A program made the position numbers and the translations under genes. Positions 12,166-50,074 of a DNA stretch of 64,000 nucleotides are shown here, piece by piece. The stretch covers positions 1 to 64,000 of the forward strand of contig CAYRRM010000002.1 of assembly GCA_964426675.1 (NCBI GenBank), in the 5' to 3' direction. The DNA is from an uncultured Lentisphaera sp. GTDB lineage: Bacteria > Verrucomicrobiota > Lentisphaeria > Victivallales > GWF2-50-93. Numbering within the stretch: position 1 is the first letter of the stretch; each line of letters begins with the position of its first letter. A model generated the notes under the pieces. That model was given only the letters and a program-made list of their open reading frames with translations. It was not told the DNA's origin and did no database searches.

Positions 12166-12440
12166 CCTAAATCTTTCATAAAAAGTTTTAAAATAAACCG
12201 TAAAATCTATCATAACCTGTTATTTGGTAGTTTGTTACAAAAATACAAAAAACATGAGATTTACCAATGACACAGTGGAACACTTTAAAAGACAATTTTC
12301 AATCTAATTTTTTCCTGCTATTAAAAAGGGGGAAAGTTAAACTGTAGATTTTCTTCCACGTTGGTCTCATTTTGGCTCAGAATAGTTCCAAAAAGGAGCT
12401 GTCATCTCAAAGCCAACAATGGGAGAGACAATCTGTCAAA

Positions 12441-12535
12441 ATCATCAACCTAAAAAATTGACGAAGCATAATCTATAACAACTTTATTTTCATATACATA
12501 AAAATAAAAACAATTTTCAACAGCTTTTATTAGGA
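12441..12535. repeat. R1 repeat, degenerate copy 1 (hyperconserved core AGCATAATCTATAACAAC...TTTTCATATACATAAAAATAAAAACAATTTTCAA)
   Basis: The core is near-identical to those at 15145-15200 and 47051-47108. The upstream part of the element is diverged or deleted. Confidence 0.8.
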
Positions 12536-12919
12536 GCAATTTACAAGCATCTTAACAGCATAAATTCAAAAATCACATCGAGAAAATAACAAAAGTTAAC
12601 AGAGCCTGCCTTATGAAATAAGCAGATTAATGTTATTTTAAGATTTTCCTGCATTTCGTGTTTCAGTTAATTAAGAGATAAAAATGTCGGGAAAGATACG
12701 AATGGAATACAAATTATTTTATCATAGATATCAAATAATTCGAAGGGTTTGACTATCACAAAGGTTTGCGAGAACTTCAATATTTGAATATTGGAATAAA
12801 AATTTCAAATTGCATAAAATTACCAGAAAACAGCACAAAAAGAAGAGAAAAATTGTTTTTTTACATATAATATTTATAAAGTTAATTAAAAAAGTAAACA
12901 TTAAAGAAGGAGATGAAAA

Positions 12920-14299
12920 ATGAAATTCAAAGAAATGAAAATTAAAAGTTCTGATGGTTTAATATTTGGAAAGGCTCCAAATCCAGTAAAAACACGAAGA
13001 GGACTCTTAATTGGAGGTGGATTAGTGTATCCTGAATTAAATTTTACAGTTCCAGAATCTACTTTAATCAATAGAGATACATTGCCAGAACTTATTGATA
13101 TGTATTCAAATCTCGTAAAAAATGTTCTTGAAAGAGCTGTAGAACTTGAATCAAATGGTCTTGTCCTCGAATTTGAAACCTTGCTGGAAATGACAAATGA
13201 CCCATTTATTGGAACTGAAATTGTAAAGGCCATGAATAATATATGTGAAGAGTTTTATATAAAATATGGCTTAAAAACTGAAATACGTCTAACTCCTAAT
13301 GATAGTCGTGATATGGAAAGACCTCCCAAAATGAGAAATGGCAAATATCTTGATGCGATGTTTGAACTATTTGAGAAAGGCTCCGATGCTGGGGCTGATT
13401 TATTATCAATAGAGTCAACTGGCGGAAAGGAAATTCATGATGATGCGTTGATGAATTGCGATATAAGACTTTCCCTATTTTCCCTGGCTATTCTCGGCGT
13501 AAGAGATATGAAATTTTTATGGAATAATATTGTGAAAATTGCAAAAAGAAAGGGGAAAATTGCTGCATCAGATACTGCATGCGGTTTTGCAAATACAGCA
13601 ATGGTTCTGGCAGATAAAAATTATATTCCTAAAGTTTTTTCTGCTGCAGTGAGAATGATAAGTGTAGTAAGGAGTCTTGTAGCCATTGAAGAAGGAGCTC
13701 AAGGACCACATAAGGATTGCGGTTATGAAGGAGTCTATATAAAGGCAATATCCGGTATTCCTATATCTATGGAGGGAAAAAGTGCGGCATGCGCTCACCT
13801 CAGCCCGGTTGGGAACATATCCTGTGCAGCGGCAGATTTATGGAGTAATGAATCTGTTCAGAACATAAAACTCCTCGCAGGAATGGCTCCTACTGTATTT
13901 GAGGAAATTCTCGAATATGATACACGCATTTTAAACACAGCTTCCGCATGTGACGAGAAAAGTGCCAGGCAACTTCAAAAATTACTTATAGAATCAGATT
14001 GTCATCGTGATCCTCAGGCCTTCGTCTTATCCCCTGAATTTGTTTTAGAAGTTGCAAGTGAAATCTTAAAATATGATAATCACTATATGGCAGCTCTAAA
14101 AAGTTCTCTTAAAGGTCTTCAGATTTGTAAGGAAGCTATTAAATCTGGTTTTCTAAAAAGTTCAGAAAGAGAAAAAGACTGGCTGGAAAGGATTATAGAC
14201 GAATTATCAAGTTGTCCAGAAGATGAAAGCAAATTTATAGATGAAGTTTTACCTCTTGTTGATACTGAAAAGTGCGATTTAAAACAGTATGAACTCTGA
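12920..14299 (+). CDS. MtaB-family protein (methanol:corrinoid methyltransferase subunit B-like, TIM-barrel zinc enzyme)
   Basis: GADLLSIESTGGKEIHDDALMNCDI and DCGYEGVYIKAISGIPISMEGKSAACAHLS resemble remembered MtaB zinc-site regions. A strong AAGGAG RBS is present. No mtaC or mtaA lies adjacent. Confidence 0.5.
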   Translation: MKFKEMKIKSSDGLIFGKAPNPVKTRRGLLIGGGLVYPELNFTVPESTLINRDTLPELIDMYSNLVKNVLERAVELESNGLVLEFETLLEMTNDPFIGTEIVKAMNNICEEFYIKYGLKTEIRLTPNDSRDMERPPKMRNGKYLDAMFELFEKGSDAGADLLSIESTGGKEIHDDALMNCDIRLSLFSLAILGVRDMKFLWNNIVKIAKRKGKIAASDTACGFANTAMVLADKNYIPKVFSAAVRMISVVRSLVAIEEGAQGPHKDCGYEGVYIKAISGIPISMEGKSAACAHLSPVGNISCAAADLWSNESVQNIKLLAGMAPTVFEEILEYDTRILNTASACDEKSARQLQKLLIESDCHRDPQAFVLSPEFVLEVASEILKYDNHYMAALKSSLKGLQICKEAIKSGFLKSSEREKDWLERIIDELSSCPEDESKFIDEVLPLVDTEKCDLKQYEL

Positions 14300-14536
14300 A
14301 CAACATCATATTTTTTAAATACAGTTTGTTAAAATATATTCTGATTTTTCAAAAATTTTTTTGCGCGGTTTTTGATTTCTTAATTTTTCGCAAAAATTTT
14401 ATTTCCTAAGACACAACACATTACGGATTGATATTATACTTATTAAAATTTATAACACTTGAAAAAAAAGTATTATGATTTATATTTTGTGGAAAATTAT
14501 TCTTCTATGCGGAAAATATAATTATCTGTTAAATTA

Positions 14537-14692
14537 ATGAATAATATCAAGGAGAAATCAGATTTGACAAGAAATGAGGAAATAGAATTTTGTGACGGGT
14601 GTGGAAAACAGTTAACACCCGGAACTCCAAGATATCGGACAGATGAAGGAACTTTCTGTCCAGAATGTTATAAAAAAAGAATTTCAACGTGA
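14537..14692 (+). CDS. small zinc-ribbon protein (CxxC-x17-CxxC), absent from the ORF track
   Basis: The 51-codon ORF encodes ...EFCDGCGKQLTPGTPRYRTDEGTFCPECYKK. An AAGGAG at 14549-14554 sits 9 nt before an in-frame TTG at 14564, which is an alternative start. Confidence 0.4.
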   Translation: MNNIKEKSDLTRNEEIEFCDGCGKQLTPGTPRYRTDEGTFCPECYKKRIST

Positions 14693-14987
14693 TGGTAAAA
14701 TTTCTATTTCTGAGATAAAAATTTGGAAGAGCCTTAACGGCATTTATTTACTCATTTAGGGTAAATAAAATGGATTAGGTTTAGAAGCTTAATAATCAAG
14801 TACTAATAACTTTGCCAAGCCTTGAGTTTAAGAAGTAAAAATATACGTGATTTTGGATATTTTCAGTATTCTCATACAAACCGTATGTTGGTATATTTAT
14901 ATATCATTATAGTGTCAGGGAGATAATATTCCATCTTGATAATTTCTCCAGTTTAAATTATTTAAAAACTTTTTGGTTAAGTTCATC

Positions 14988-15215
14988 CTCTAAATTAAGC
15001 AGTTGGGCGCATCTGCCGTAGATAGTAGGTAGCAAAACGAGCTGTAGCAACTACTAGTGGAAGCTAACGAAGTAGATACGATAAATACGGACAGCCATTC
15101 GCGGGTTGAAAATCGTAAAAAATCGTCAACCTAAAAGGTTGACGAAGCATAATCTATAACAACCTTATTTTCATATACATAAAAATAAAAACAATTTTCA
15201 ACTGATTTTTTTAGG
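14988..15215. repeat. R1 repeat, full copy 2 (about 225 bp), contains the perfect hairpin CGTCAACC-TAAAA-GGTTGACG at 15124-15144
   Basis: It aligns along its whole length with 46893-47120 and with the partial copy at 12441-12535. Confidence 0.85.
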
Positions 15216-44299: not shown

Positions 44300-46477
44300 T
44301 CATACTATCGTTAGTAGTTTTGCAGAATTTGGAGCAATATCTACTACCCCAATTTCTGACTGCATTGTGGCAAATGTATCACTGAAATTCGCAAGAAAAA
44401 TATATTTCTTTTGATCAAAGCCTCGAACCCAAACAGCTTTTACTCTATTATTAGAATGAATCTGACCACATTGAATCTTTTTTGTCTCTTCAGGCGAAGC
44501 ATTAGAAAAAACAAGAAATCCAATATCTACCAAAATCTCATCTGAAACACATCGTTTCAAATTAGAATTGGCATTCGTACAAATTTCGTCTATAAAGAGA
44601 GTTTTATAACGACCACCGCGTCGGTTTTTAGAACGACTAATCTGCAAACAATCAGCTCCATAAATAAGTGATATGCCAAGAATTTCATCTATATTTAGCC
44701 ACTTGCTATTAATTTGCATCAAATAGTCGTTTGAAGGTGGAGATGACAATTCATAACTACCTTCAGCGGAAATAGTAACCCTTTTATAATTATTAAAGAG
44801 ATCATTAGGAATATTAAGATGCAAAGCTTTTAATTCAATAATATATCCCACACGATTTGGAGATGCTATGACATACTGAAGACAAATGCATGTTTTATTA
44901 TCAGGCAATGCTGAAAAGGCTATATATGAAATTGCCTGATCCGTACAATAACCGCCTTCATCCACTACAACGTCTACTCCTTCCATTATAGAACCATATG
45001 CAATAAAACCTCCATCAATGGCTTCTACCTTTCCTGTTAATAATCGACGATGCCTTGAAGGGAATAAACCATCATCCCCAATAAATCGAACAACAGGACA
45101 CATATTTAAAGACCATTCAGCAAGGTCTCCTTTTTGTGGCGGAAGGCATAACGCCTGGGCCAAACCATCGGCCCTCCACGAAAAAGAGCTAAAACGCGTA
45201 GGTGAACGATGCAGAACTGCTCCGTGTTCCTCCTCAATCCAGAGTACAGAACTCGATTCATTTAAATCTTTTTTTGGAATGGAACTATTTGCTTTTATCA
45301 AAGGTAAATAATTCAAAAGCATTGAGAGAACACATGCGCGGTCTGACTCAATTCTTGTATAATAATGAGGATTTGTAAGGCGTAAATTCTCCAACCTTTT
45401 GCTATAAAAAGACCCATCCTCGTTTTCTACAGCTTCTCTTTCCATCAAGTCAAGCTGGGATTCCACAAGTTGAAATGCGTTAGAATCATTAAAAAAATCC
45501 ATAGCAAAAAGTAATGATGGAAGAAGATATTCCTGACAATACGCATAACGCACCCGTGTATCTCCACCAATTCGTGCCAATCTCCCATCTTCAAATATCA
45601 TTCTGGAAAGCACATTCCAAAGATCAAGCTGATGATGATACAAACTTTCAGGAGGTCTTATTCCCAAACTTTTAAAATCAAAATGGAGTATGGCAGCATT
45701 ACTTATACATATTACCATATATCCTACGTTTAAATATCCATGATGGTCCAACGCATATGAGGGGAAAAAATTTGCCCCAACATGCCAATCTTTAACTGGA
45801 ATACCAGAAATGATAGTTTGATCATCAGCATCTGCTTCAACTGAAATACCATTAACAAGATACTTATCAGCAAGTTTTAACCAGGCATTTCTATTTTTTT
45901 CATGAGGGTATAAATGGGCGATTCTATGTAAAAAGCAACCATTCCATATATTTGACTCTGGATTATTACAGCCACTACTATTCCATTTAGCAGCACATAC
46001 TCCTTTATGATTGGCTCGCCTTCCATGATATAAAATCCAATCAGCTTCATTTATTAATAAACAGTGTAATGAGGAAAGCTCGTCATTAGATAACAATGAT
46101 TTTATATACTTTAATCCATGAAATGCACGTTCTATTCCGAGTATACTAATCCAACTATTGCCCCATTTTTTTCCATCATTTCCTACTTCTCTTCCAGTTA
46201 TATGAGTATTTAGCGCAAAGCGAAGAGAAGCTATTGCACGTTTTTCTAGTGCAGACTTTTTATTCGGATCTAGAGTAAGAGAAGATAAAGTTGAAACTGC
46301 AGCAAGATAATTCCAATTAGACTGGACTCCCCAATGCAGATATCCTGGCCCAAAACATCCAGATGGTGCATTATGATTAGCCTCATACCAGTAACAGTTC
46401 ATCGCACTAATCCAATTCTCAAGTAGATTTTTAGCCCTATTAAGTATTTTATTTTTTCTGTTTAAATATGAGTCCAT
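44300..46477 (-). CDS. hypothetical protein, possibly a heparinase II/III-like toroid-fold polysaccharide-degrading enzyme
   Basis: The product is 725 aa. No confident family. LDHHGYLNVGY loosely resembles lyase motifs. Confidence 0.25.
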   Translation of the reverse strand: MDSYLNRKNKILNRAKNLLENWISAMNCYWYEANHNAPSGCFGPGYLHWGVQSNWNYLAAVSTLSSLTLDPNKKSALEKRAIASLRFALNTHITGREVGNDGKKWGNSWISILGIERAFHGLKYIKSLLSNDELSSLHCLLINEADWILYHGRRANHKGVCAAKWNSSGCNNPESNIWNGCFLHRIAHLYPHEKNRNAWLKLADKYLVNGISVEADADDQTIISGIPVKDWHVGANFFPSYALDHHGYLNVGYMVICISNAAILHFDFKSLGIRPPESLYHHQLDLWNVLSRMIFEDGRLARIGGDTRVRYAYCQEYLLPSLLFAMDFFNDSNAFQLVESQLDLMEREAVENEDGSFYSKRLENLRLTNPHYYTRIESDRACVLSMLLNYLPLIKANSSIPKKDLNESSSVLWIEEEHGAVLHRSPTRFSSFSWRADGLAQALCLPPQKGDLAEWSLNMCPVVRFIGDDGLFPSRHRRLLTGKVEAIDGGFIAYGSIMEGVDVVVDEGGYCTDQAISYIAFSALPDNKTCICLQYVIASPNRVGYIIELKALHLNIPNDLFNNYKRVTISAEGSYELSSPPSNDYLMQINSKWLNIDEILGISLIYGADCLQISRSKNRRGGRYKTLFIDEICTNANSNLKRCVSDEILVDIGFLVFSNASPEETKKIQCGQIHSNNRVKAVWVRGFDQKKYIFLANFSDTFATMQSEIGVVDIAPNSAKLLTIV

Positions 46478-46892
46478 AAACTTATATCCTCATTTTTTTA
46501 CTTCTTACATCAATACAAAATTACCGAGCACTTCACCTAAATTTTCAAATTCTATTATCTAATAGATTATAAATACCTAAATATAAAGATATTATAGATA
46601 TCCAATGGTTTATTTTTTCTTCAAATTTTTGGCTAAATTCCCACAAGGTTCCAGCCAGGCCATTGTGTGAAGCACTGATTACGGAGAAAGATCTTCTATA
46701 CCAGCGTCCTTTCTCCATTCTCATACTGACTAAAAGCAAAATATAGGTTAAAAAAAATTAAACACAAGAACAAATGCATTTAAGGAAAAATAAATCATAT
46801 GTTTGAATTTTCTACTTCTGAAAAAAAACTTTATTAAAACCTTTGTCTGTTTACCCAAATTTTGCACCTCAATCAGCCAGCAAGAGTTTTTC

Positions 46893-47120
46893 CTAAATTA
46901 AGCAGTTGGACGCATTTGCCGTAGATACCAGGTAGCGAGACAACGCTGTAGTAACTAAAATCGAAATTAAAGAAGTAGATACGATAAATGCGGACAAGCC
47001 CGCGCGAGTTAAAAAATTGTAAAAAAATCGTCAACCTAAAAGTTTGATGGAGCATAATCTATAAAAACCCTATTTTCATATACATAAAAATAAAAACAAT
47101 TTTCAATTGCTTTTTTAGGA
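46893..47120. repeat. R1 repeat, full copy 3
   Basis: It aligns along its full length with 14988-15215. The core 47051-47108 is near-identical. Confidence 0.85.
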
Positions 47121-47377
47121 TAATAAATGTGGTGTGAACTGCATTGCTGTTCACGAAATTATCCTTTTGTGCTATGCTGATAGAACTTGCAAGGAATCGC
47201 CTTGATTCCTCGCAACTATGCCATACTGGCAAAACGCAAGATATAGGCTAATTTCATAAATTTTTTGAATTTAAGAATAAGTTTTTATTGAGAGTAAGGT
47301 ACATTTTTTAATATTGATTAATCGCGTTTACGAGAGGATAGAAATGCCATCAAATATGACCACGTGAAAACGGTAAA

Positions 47378-49204
47378 TTAAGGAAAGATCATAGCCTCTG
47401 AAAAAATCATCTGAAATTCTGGGTCCAGAGATATCTCAATATAATTAGTTTTTTCTGCAAGCTCCTCAGCTTTTCTTCTTCTTTCTCCAGAAAGCAGAGC
47501 TTCTTTTGCTCCTTCTGAAGAAGTATTGCCAACATATCTTATTTTATAATCTGGAATATTTGGAAGTAAACCAATACGCACAGCATTATTTCTACGAATG
47601 AAATTTCCAAAACCACCTGCTACTAATACTGTATCAAGCTCTTCTGGAGTTATTCCAATTTTTTGTAACAAGATATTTATAGTTGCCCTTATAGCTCCTG
47701 TAGCAAGTTGAATTTCCCTGATATCTCTTTGAGAGATAAAAATCTTTTTTTTGTTATCTGCCTGGAGAAGAAAATCCCATGTCTGGCCATCATCTCGAGA
47801 TATGAGCCTATCTTTTAAAATTTTTGGTAGAGATGATAATTCATCAGGTGATAAAATTCTACCTGAAGACTCAAGAATGCCAATTTTCAGTAACTCTGCA
47901 GTTGAATCTATAACAGCACTTCCGCAAATTCCTAAAGGCGCTGTATTGCCTATGACATTTAAATGAACTCCTTCTCTGTTAATAATAACTTTTTCTATTG
48001 CTCCTTTTGAAGCTCTCATTCCGTATTCAATCCTTGCTCCTTCAAATGCTGGGCCTGCTGCAGCAGAAGCAGCAAATAAATTCCCTCCATTAGCTAAGAC
48101 AATTTCTCCATTTGTTCCTATATCAATGAAAAGTGTGGGTTTTTCCCTTTCATCAAGTCTGCAAGCACTTATTCCTGCGGTTATATCCCCACCAACAAAT
48201 CCCCCTATCAGGGGGAATATATATACTGGTGCTTCTGGATTTATATCAATACCCAAATCATTGGCTTCGAATAAAAGAGGTTTTTTAAATGGTGGGACAA
48301 ATGGAATCTCTCCTAAGTTTTTCGCTGTTATACCGCAAAAGAAACATTCCATTACTGTGTTTCCTGCTACCGCTGCAGAGTAGATATTTTTTTGTTTAAT
48401 ACCATTATCCTGACAAAGTTGTCGAATCAAATTATTAACAGCCTGAATAACAAGACTCTGAAGCTGTTCAAGATTTTCAGCAGACTTTTTTTCTGCCATT
48501 ATTCTTGAAATAAGATCATCTCCAAATTTTGTTTGTGGGTTTAATGATCCTTTACTATCAATAGTTTTTCCTTTTACAATATCTATCAAGGAAACAACTA
48601 TCGTTGTTGTCCCAATATCAACAGCAACTGCAAAATTAATGGATTCTGTATTTCCCTTATCCAGACAAATAATTTTATTATCACTTAGTACCGCTGTCCC
48701 TTTGAAGGAATTTTCTCTTAAAAACATCGGAATAGTTCTTAGCGTCTCTAAAGATATATCCTGAACAGAAAGATCCTCACGAAGTGCCTCAAAATCTGCT
48801 TTTTGATTTTCGAGAGAAGGTGGAATAAGAGAAAAAAATTTCTTTCGCACAAGTGGGGAATTTTCTAATAAAAATGGCTTATCGTCCTGGGTTAAAATAA
48901 GCAATTCATTTTCAAAAATAGTTTCAGACGGTACATCAATTTCGAGATTATCTTTTATTTTTAGTCTGCACGCAAGTCTCCAACCATTTTCAAGTTCTTC
49001 TTGAGAAAAAAACTTTTTGCACTGTTCATCTGGAGTAGATTCACCAGATATTACTCTTATTTTGCATTTTCCACATATACCCTGTCCTGCGCAAGGATTT
49101 TTTATCAAAATGCCAGCTCTCATTATACATTCGAGCAAAGAGGAGTCCTCCAAAGCATAAATTTCCTTTTTATAGTGGGGAAAATAAATCCTATAGTTCT
49201 TCAT
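47378..49204 (-). CDS. RACo-like ATP-dependent corrinoid reductive activase (2Fe-2S ferredoxin domain plus ASKHA/DUF4445)
   Basis: The N-terminal plant-type ferredoxin motif is CAGQGICGKCK, followed by the ASKHA phosphate-1 motif VDIGTTT. Confidence 0.65.
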   Translation of the reverse strand: MKNYRIYFPHYKKEIYALEDSSLLECIMRAGILIKNPCAGQGICGKCKIRVISGESTPDEQCKKFFSQEELENGWRLACRLKIKDNLEIDVPSETIFENELLILTQDDKPFLLENSPLVRKKFFSLIPPSLENQKADFEALREDLSVQDISLETLRTIPMFLRENSFKGTAVLSDNKIICLDKGNTESINFAVAVDIGTTTIVVSLIDIVKGKTIDSKGSLNPQTKFGDDLISRIMAEKKSAENLEQLQSLVIQAVNNLIRQLCQDNGIKQKNIYSAAVAGNTVMECFFCGITAKNLGEIPFVPPFKKPLLFEANDLGIDINPEAPVYIFPLIGGFVGGDITAGISACRLDEREKPTLFIDIGTNGEIVLANGGNLFAASAAAGPAFEGARIEYGMRASKGAIEKVIINREGVHLNVIGNTAPLGICGSAVIDSTAELLKIGILESSGRILSPDELSSLPKILKDRLISRDDGQTWDFLLQADNKKKIFISQRDIREIQLATGAIRATINILLQKIGITPEELDTVLVAGGFGNFIRRNNAVRIGLLPNIPDYKIRYVGNTSSEGAKEALLSGERRRKAEELAEKTNYIEISLDPEFQMIFSEAMIFP

Positions 49205-49272
49205 TTTTTATTTTATATTTTACTAAATGGATTAATGTATATTCAAAAACTATAATCTCAAAAAAACAAATT

Positions 49273-49944
49273 ATGAAGTTTTTGGATTTTCACAGCCATT
49301 TCAGGAATTTTTCTGCAAAAGAGACTGCAATTGTATCAATTTTTCCAAATGAATGCTCATGGGAAAATCGTAATGATGTCTACTTTTCCTGCGGAATACA
49401 TCCTAATTTCATACCAGAAGATTGCAATGTTTTAAGTCAATACATTCATATTTTAAAAAAACGAATGGAGACAAAAAAATTTTTAGCCATAGGGGAATGT
49501 GGACTGGATAGAACTTCTAAGTCCTCTATTGAAAGACAGATAAAGATATTAAATTTGCAGATAGAAATAGCTTGCGAATTTCGCAAACCAATAATTATAC
49601 ATTGTGTAAGAGCTTACGGCGAGATGTTGTCATTAAAAAAACAGTATAATAAATTAAGACTTCCCTTTGTAATTCATGGTTTCAGAGGATCAATAAAACT
49701 CGCAGAACAATTAACTGAAGCTGGTTTTATATTATCTTTTGGATATAAAATTTTAAAAGATCAAAATAAAATGAATGTTATTTCTGAATTAAAGGATAAA
49801 ATTTTTTTTCTTGAAAGTGATGAAGAAAAATATGGAGTAATCCCACTGTACCACGAAATAGCTAGATATTTAAAATGGGACGTAGAGGAACTAAAAGAAA
49901 AAATTAATATTTGGGCAAAAAGCTTATTCAATATCGATTTTTAG
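49273..49944 (+). CDS. tatD: TatD-family metal-dependent hydrolase/DNase
   Basis: A TIM-barrel amidohydrolase pattern is present (DFHSH, ECGLD, HCVRA). Confidence 0.7.
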   Translation: MKFLDFHSHFRNFSAKETAIVSIFPNECSWENRNDVYFSCGIHPNFIPEDCNVLSQYIHILKKRMETKKFLAIGECGLDRTSKSSIERQIKILNLQIEIACEFRKPIIIHCVRAYGEMLSLKKQYNKLRLPFVIHGFRGSIKLAEQLTEAGFILSFGYKILKDQNKMNVISELKDKIFFLESDEEKYGVIPLYHEIARYLKWDVEELKEKINIWAKSLFNIDF

Positions 49945-49997
49945 ATTGCTTTTCAAAAATTATATTGTATATTTTGGAAATTCTTTACTTCATAAAT

Positions 49998-50074
<77 letters not shown>

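Follow-up and report, generated by a model that had tools for sequence, protein, structure and literature searches.

R1, a candidate MITE-like intergenic repeat with a near-invariant core in an uncultured Victivallales bacterium

Results

A dispersed repeat with discrete ends

The stretch of DNA analysed here (the window) covers the first 64,000 nucleotides of contig CAYRRM010000002.1 from an uncultured Victivallales bacterium, and its intergenic spacers contain a short repeat, R1, of 220-230 bp (about 228 bp). With moderate confidence we interpret R1 as a lineage-specific, non-coding dispersed repeat that resembles a MITE (miniature inverted-repeat transposable element). This interpretation is favoured because the repeat has discrete ends, carries terminal inverted repeats, occurs in unrelated, dispersed contexts and is absent from the same loci of a sister species. 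R1 is shorter than 500 bp, contains no transposase or conserved open reading frame (ORF), has terminal inverted repeats within the range of ~4-30 bp and is found as dispersed intergenic copies. These features agree with published criteria for prokaryotic MITEs (PMC10969869), which are described as elements of less than 500 bp with terminal inverted repeats of 4-30 bp, flanked by direct repeats that erode over time and located in intergenic or 3' untranslated regions. The same source describes sigma-70-like promoters and terminator-like hairpins within such elements and their role as recombination hot spots (PMC10969869). Of the three options that an earlier note on this DNA had offered for R1, namely a promoter cassette, a MITE or a very short transcript ending at a terminator, our analysis favours the MITE.

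Three copies are present in the window, all on the plus strand, where the earlier note had placed a three-copy family. Copy 2 (14989-15215, 227 bp) and copy 3 (46892-47119, 228 bp) are full length and align end to end over ~228 columns with an identity of 82-84%; nhmmer matches copy 2 over 14990-15212 with E = 6.7e-73. Copy 1 (12425-12534) is partial and retains only the right ~108 bp, comprising a hairpin remnant, the core and the right end (profile model positions 119-224), with 96 of 108 positions identical to copy 2 (89%). All three contain an exact 34-mer, TTTTCATATACATAAAAATAAAAACAATTTTCAA, at 12487, 15168 and 47073 on the plus strand, for which 100 dinucleotide shuffles gave 0 matches. 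A repeat finder recovered one three-member family together with two more blocks common to copies 2 and 3, and a profile search of the window returned no additional diverged copies of R1.

Alignment of the five full copies, two from the window and three from the metagenome contigs described below, revealed sharp common outer boundaries, with unrelated flanks and no flanking DNA co-duplicated. The ends form imperfect terminal inverted repeats, a feature that had been overlooked when the copies themselves were correctly described. In copy 2 the left repeat, TCTAAATTAAGCAGTTG (14989-15005, plus strand), is partnered by CAACTGATTTTTTTAGG at the right end (15199-15215, plus strand), while in copy A the two ends, AACCTAAATTAAGCAGTTG and CAACTGCTTTTTTTAGGTT, match at 17 of 19 positions. 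Terminal inverted repeats are found in all full copies, with small indels, and the observed terminal 17-mer match was reached by none of 200 shuffles. An inner inverted repeat of 12 nt lies within these ends, its left arm GTTGAAAATCGT (15105-15116, plus strand) partnered by ACAATTTTCAAC at 15191-15202 and matching at 11 of 12 positions (92%) in copy A. This inner repeat encloses the right-hand module of R1, which is AT-rich and ~100 bp long.

The sequences immediately flanking R1 are AT-rich pentamers (TTCAT, TTAAA, TTTAT). Taking CCT...AGG as the ends places a perfect TTCAT on either side of copy 2. Across the five copies the 5-bp flanks show 17 of 25 within-copy matches, compared with 13.5 on average and at most 16 for mispaired flanks (44 derangements), the boundaries and the length having been chosen post hoc. 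We take these flanks as a hint of a decayed 5-bp target-site duplication in an AT-rich target.

R1 occupies unrelated loci in one lineage

The earlier note had proposed a search of the genome and its relatives for more copies, and a metagenome scan with a 24-mer of the core turned up three further distinct full copies, on contigs L018 and L020 (copy A), L019 and L022 (copy B) and L021 and L024 (copy C), all from the same samples as the window organism. The contig of copy C is tied to the Victivallales lineage of metagenome-assembled genomes (MAGs) via a 100%-identical PtsP, and proteins identical to those of the window are found in anaerobic-digester metagenomes and in MAGs named 'Victivallales bacterium' by NCBI. 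The window (GC content ~35%) is of bacterial origin, with a tRNA-Tyr that has a long arm, a ProRS of the bacterial type carrying an editing domain, and RACo equipped with a 2Fe-2S domain. So far, R1 is represented by at least five full copies and one partial copy, at six loci with unrelated neighbours, and its copy number is low.

All assemblies of the same species carry copies of R1. Several independent short-read contigs (L003, L006, L014, L015 and L018) stop inside the repeat, at or near the invariant core, as would be expected at a repeat, which shows that R1 limits assembly of this genome. A 28-mer of the core had 0 matches in 185,579 species genomes, a collection without this species, and the R1 profile found nothing in 81 loci, consisting of 80 MtaB relatives and the sister-species contig L025. 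The profile also found nothing in loci L106-L109 and L111. Apart from one diverged element in the sister species, R1 was found in one species-level lineage only. We rejected the idea that R1 is part of an insertion sequence (IS) or prophage, given that the window contains no transposase or integrase and that R1 has no match in viral contigs, nor in plasmid and phage collections.

Four of the five full copies lie between convergent genes. Copy 2 is located between the MtaB gene (12920-14299) and a 51-aa zinc-ribbon ORF (14537-14692), both on the plus strand, and a GH16 gene on the minus strand. The partial copy 1 sits between a 208-aa gene and the MtaB gene, so that copies 1 and 2 are in direct orientation around the MtaB gene and the zinc-ribbon ORF only, as had been described. 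Copy 3 lies between tandem minus-strand genes, with RACo on one side and a 64-aa ORF and a 725-aa gene on the other; the spacer between the RACo and 725-aa genes is 900 nt, in keeping with the 0.9 kb given before. Copies A, B and C are found beside genes for a HAD hydrolase, a fucosidase, an M20 peptidase, a sulfatase, a DUF4340 protein and PtsP. None of these is related to corrinoid metabolism, and the suggested corrinoid (B12) association of R1 was therefore rejected; the proximity of two window copies to MtaB and RACo is coincidental.

R1 loci are rearranged in a sister species

A sister species is present in metagenome JGI 3300014197, with ~84% nucleotide identity in shared genes. R1 is missing from the sister species at all four loci that were compared (copies 1, 2, 3 and C), and each of these loci is rearranged, forming a synteny breakpoint. 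At the locus of copies 1 and 2 the sister gene order is GH2, DUF2334, GH16, GlcNAc-2-epimerase, zinc-ribbon ORF, MtaB and YdjC, without R1. The MtaB segment (12810-14297, the gene with 110 nt upstream) is inverted in the window relative to L106:5398-6883. The GlcNAc-2-epimerase gene that follows GH16 is replaced in the window by 594 nt holding copy 2, with no epimerase remnant, and the order GH16 then epimerase is also found in a more distant relative (two relatives in all). MtaB and the conserved 51-aa zinc-ribbon ORF are ancestral at this locus, because both sit there in the sister species without R1, and for the same reason we rejected the possibility that an MtaB cassette was delivered by the flanking R1 copies.

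At the copy 3 locus the sister orthologue of the 725-aa gene (78% identical) is directly preceded by TatD and tRNA-Val, with neither RACo nor R1. Comparison of window positions 46478-50074 with L025:1-460 showed that RACo, copy 3 and the 64-aa ORF intervene in the window, where TatD-tRNA-Val is also inverted. R1 had been thought to be positioned to drive the 725-aa gene. This proposal finds no support in the sister species, and since tRNA-Val lies immediately upstream of the orthologue, R1 was rejected as a conserved upstream element of the gene. At the copy C locus, homology with the sister species stops 31 nt before R1 and the downstream neighbour is different.

It is possible that R1 is the remnant of segmental duplication and rearrangement, without mobility of its own, in which copies recombine ectopically and gene conversion keeps the longest identical tract homogeneous while the rest drifts. 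Such an origin would fit the synteny breakpoints at all four sister-comparable loci, the presence of three of the six known copies within 35 kb and a conservation gradient that rises towards the core rather than in a step. However, the five full copies have the same sharp boundaries and terminal inverted repeats, their flanks were not co-duplicated, and the related element in the sister species has the same layout with its own ends. We consider this explanation unlikely.

The core is conserved beyond its promoter-like motif

The hyperconserved core spans 56 nt in copy 2 (15146-15201, plus strand), with few variable columns in the alignment, and corresponds to 47051-47106 in copy 3 and 12465-12520 in copy 1 (both plus strand), each with the exact 34-mer. 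Variable columns account for 6 of 62 in the core compared with 67 of 133 in the left module (Fisher p = 1.2e-8), and in every pair of copies the identity is 92-98% in the core and 65-82% in the left module. The longest invariant run in the alignment is 36 nt. A second invariant island, AGTAGATACGATAAAT (15071-15086, plus strand), is found within the otherwise variable left module, and its GTAGATA also occurs at 15019-15025. Conservation climbs as a gradient toward the core, with no step. These counts uphold the earlier observation of stronger conservation in the core than elsewhere in R1, although selection, to which it had been attributed, is not the sole possible cause. Core invariance could reflect a cis requirement for propagation, gene conversion in the longest identical tract, or a host function as a promoter or small RNA (sRNA).

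Read on the minus strand, the core contains a -35-like TTGAAA (15201-15196), a spacer of 18 nt and a -10-like TATATG (15177-15172). Promoters of tRNA genes in the same genome look sigma-70-like, that of tRNA-Val being TTGCTT-16-TATATT. The core had been described as a good sigma-70 promoter with a spacing of 17 or 18 nt; the motif is indeed present, at 18 nt, but TATATG lacks the final T and is below consensus, and a standard sigma-70 consensus scan calls a promoter in no copy. Invariance is as strong in the spacer and flanks of this putative promoter as in its hexamers, which promoter function alone is insufficient to explain. A hairpin followed by a U-run had also been reported. This hairpin, TCGTCAACC-UUUU-AGGUUGACGA (15145-15123, minus strand), is perfect in copy 2 and not intact in the other copies; a terminator hairpin is called in copy 2 but not in copy 3 or copy A, where the arm substitutions are uncompensated.

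These motifs could belong to a set of sibling sRNA genes, in which the core would serve as a shared minus-strand promoter with regulator sites for an RNA of ~50 nt with a seed, GGUUGUUAUAGAUUAUGCUU, and an intrinsic terminator. The arrangement TTGAAA-18-TATATG follows an A-tract and resembles the tRNA-Val promoter, the perfect hairpin and U-run of copy 2 are located ~30 nt downstream of the promoter-like motif, and conservation of the core is statistically significant. Free-standing sRNA genes typically lie between convergent genes, and sRNAs derived from MITEs are documented (PMC10969869). Nevertheless, the -10 hexamer is without the near-invariant final T, no copy is called by the promoter scan, and the terminator is called in copy 2 only, with uncompensated hairpin substitutions in copies 3 and A. 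The putative seed is variable while the promoter spacer is invariant, the 130-bp left module and the terminal inverted repeats are left unexplained, and cross-species conservation is seen in the left module and not in the putative sRNA or the core. We regard sibling sRNA genes as rather unlikely.

Protein coding was rejected on the grounds that indels interrupt the frame in copies 3 and B, no common start is found and the C-terminal changes are non-synonymous. A minus-strand frame runs through the core (..KKAVENCFYFYVYENKVVIDYASS..) and its apparent conservation is an artefact of the invariant DNA. A leader-peptide or attenuator arrangement, based on a mini-ORF MYMKIRLL and GGUUG/CAACC pairings, was also discarded; arm substitutions are uncompensated by eye, and four of the five copies have no downstream gene.

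Inverted repeats around ~200 bp with a promoter-like motif would also be the architecture of an invertible promoter (inverton), and copies 1 and 2 form direct repeats around a 2.5-kb segment, as might another site-specific recombination substrate (att or attC-like). Against an inverton, a single orientation is observed in all assemblies (n = 4 for copy 2, the window and 3 contigs; n = 9 for copy 3, the window and 8 contigs), and four of the five copies face gene 3' ends only. No recombinase gene was found in the window, and we judge recombination substrates of either kind to be very improbable. An integron attC site was rejected, as GTTGGGC ... TTTCAAC has the order GTTRRRY...RYYYAAC, the reverse of the attC order RYYYAAC ... 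GTTRRRY, and neither an array nor an integrase is present.

A related element in the sister species

A single intergenic match to the R1 profile was found in the sister species, at L110:14272-14373 (nhmmer, E = 9.7e-6). The element spans 257 bp (L110:14243-14499), with a Na+/H+ exchanger gene on one side and a VWA gene on the other. Its terminal inverted repeat, TTAACCTGCATATTTCA and TGAAATATGCAGGCTAA, matches at 16 of 17 positions and differs in sequence from the R1 ends, while an inner inverted repeat of 12 nt, ATGAAAAATCAT and ATGATTTTTTAT, is placed at the position equivalent to that in R1, with three positions changed on both arms. The left ~100 nt are homologous to the left module of R1, and the R1 core is not recognisable. 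A nested layout that is kept while the end sequences change on both arms would be expected of transposon ends co-evolving with a transposase, and equally of a folded RNA or single-stranded DNA (ssDNA) element. Just outside the right end of the sister element we observed two overlapping sigma-70-like matches on the minus strand (L110:14514-14546), which point into the element, toward the Na+/H+ exchanger gene.

The folding energy of copy 2 was below that of shuffled sequences by z = -3.5 on both strands, and for copy 3 we obtained z = -2.9 (plus) and -0.5 (minus). In these predictions the equal folding of both strands in copy 2 is the behaviour expected of a DNA palindrome. The sister element gave z = -5.5 (plus) and -4.0 (minus). 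RNAalifold returned positive covariation terms for either strand of R1, with only two compensated pairs (2-4 over all alignments folded) and no strand-specific G-U signal, and for the left module across species only -6 kcal/mol, with no net covariation bonus. At gathering thresholds no Rfam match overlaps R1. At E <= 10 the sole overlap is a weak STnc50 match at copy 3 (47083-47158, minus strand; 23.6 bits against a gathering threshold of 55; E = 0.22), the remaining sub-threshold matches being noise outside R1. The Rfam comparison proposed in the earlier note thus assigned R1 to no family, cobalamin riboswitch, 6S and T-box included.

We asked how well R1 fits a structured non-coding RNA or ssDNA element in which the two nested long-range helices are functional, for example as a 3' untranslated region or terminator module. 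Despite changed sequences, both the outer inverted repeat (17-19 nt) and the inner one (12 nt) are retained in the sister element, with the three paired changes in the inner repeat, and folding is far below shuffles in copy 2 and in the sister element. However, both strands fold equally well without a strand-specific G-U signal, the positive covariation terms come with few compensated pairs, the minus strand of copy 3 is close to its shuffles (z = -0.5) and Rfam offers no match. Predictions leave the best-conserved segment, which is AT-rich, mostly unpaired, and paired end changes are also expected for transposon ends. A functional RNA or ssDNA structure seems improbable to us.

Genes beside R1

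In the annotated stretches around the MtaB gene there is no adjacent MtaC or MtaA gene. Outside the clade this MtaB has its closest homologues, 50-61% identical, in MAGs of Bacteroidales and Clostridia (isolates labelled Tannerellaceae and Candidatus Symbiothrix among them), a distribution that suggests horizontal exchange. The 51-aa ORF (CxxC...CxxC) has no Pfam match, shares 69% identity with a 53-aa ORF at the corresponding locus in the sister species and is probably a real small gene. No Pfam domain is recognised in the 725-aa protein (44300-46477, minus strand), yet its homologues of 45-55% identity number in the hundreds in MAGs of Planctomycetota, Chloroflexota (Anaerolineae, Caldilineaceae), Spirochaetota and Lentisphaerota, and by homology it is a member of a widespread uncharacterised family.

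Discussion

R1 combines sharp, shared ends and nested inverted repeats with a core that hardly varies between copies. Several observations weigh against a MITE-like origin. No transposase or integrase is present in the 64-kb window, the contigs of copies A, B and C having been spot-checked beside R1 only, and no other element with R1 ends was found in 111 fetched loci. The direct flank repeat is clear for copy 2 only, and comes from a post hoc test. There is no clean empty site, as the sister loci are rearranged and not simply insertion-free, and the visible copies number only about six. Conservation peaks in an internal 56 nt beside one end and not in the terminal repeats, and such internal conservation would be unusual for a purely selfish MITE.

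If R1 is a MITE-like element, its copies would have accumulated in long lineage-specific spacers, mostly between convergent 3' ends, at synteny breakpoints. The right module may hold cis sequences for propagation, such as an IS-end-like transposase-binding region with an inward promoter. A second option is that ectopic recombination or gene conversion among the copies keeps the identical tract of ~100 bp uniform. In either case the core would have no regulatory function tied to the neighbouring genes, and any promoter or terminator activity would be a by-product, as in other bacterial MITEs. R1 and its sister relative could also represent a clade-specific functional non-coding element, either a domesticated MITE that provides a set of sibling sRNAs with identical promoters, or a structured RNA or ssDNA element in which compensatory change maintains the two nested helices and strong purifying selection acts on the core; we find this doubtful.

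As a MITE-like repeat, R1 would matter mainly for the annotation and assembly of this Victivallales lineage, in that it breaks short-read contigs and marks rearrangement junctions, and it would not regulate MtaB, RACo or the 725-aa gene. R1 would also add a new MITE-like family to the phylum Lentisphaerota, in which hardly any mobile or regulatory non-coding elements have been characterised. The near-invariant core, set against the drifting remainder, may make R1 a tractable case for asking what holds part of a bacterial repeat constant.

Among known repeats, bcr1 of the Bacillus cereus group is an intergenic element of ~155 bp bounded by terminal inverted repeats, with a 5-bp AT-rich duplication (TTTAT), which the AT-rich pentamers flanking R1 resemble, and is transcribable. 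It is present in tens of copies or more per genome. The sequences of bcr1 and R1 are unrelated, the copy number of R1 is lower and in R1 the duplication is only hinted at.

The Correia repeat-enclosed elements, which are MITEs of Neisseria, are similar to R1 in being dispersed, non-coding and bounded by terminal inverted repeats, with a length of 100-200+ bp (PMC10969869). They also share with R1 sigma-70-like promoter motifs near an end, stem-loops in transcripts and a link to rearrangement (PMC10969869). Unlike R1, the Correia elements exceed 100 copies, duplicate a TA target and are often found directly upstream of genes, whereas ~6 copies of R1 are known, any signal of a 5-bp duplication is weak at best, and most copies sit at gene 3' ends. 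The two show no similarity in sequence. Coxiella QMITE2 and SPRITE of Streptococcus pneumoniae are, like R1, mainly 3' untranslated or intergenic (PMC10969869). SPRITE has a hairpin resembling a Rho-independent terminator, and Coxiella MITEs give rise to sRNAs (PMC10969869). The hosts and sequences of QMITE2 and SPRITE are unrelated to those of R1, in which the terminator hairpin is intact in one copy only. The ERIC/IRU repeats of enterobacteria resemble R1 as 100-250-bp imperfect palindromes that lie in intergenic regions that are transcribed and differ in copy number between lineages (PMC10969869). ERIC, however, is conserved across bacterial families, whereas we found R1 in a single species-level lineage, with one diverged element in a sister species.

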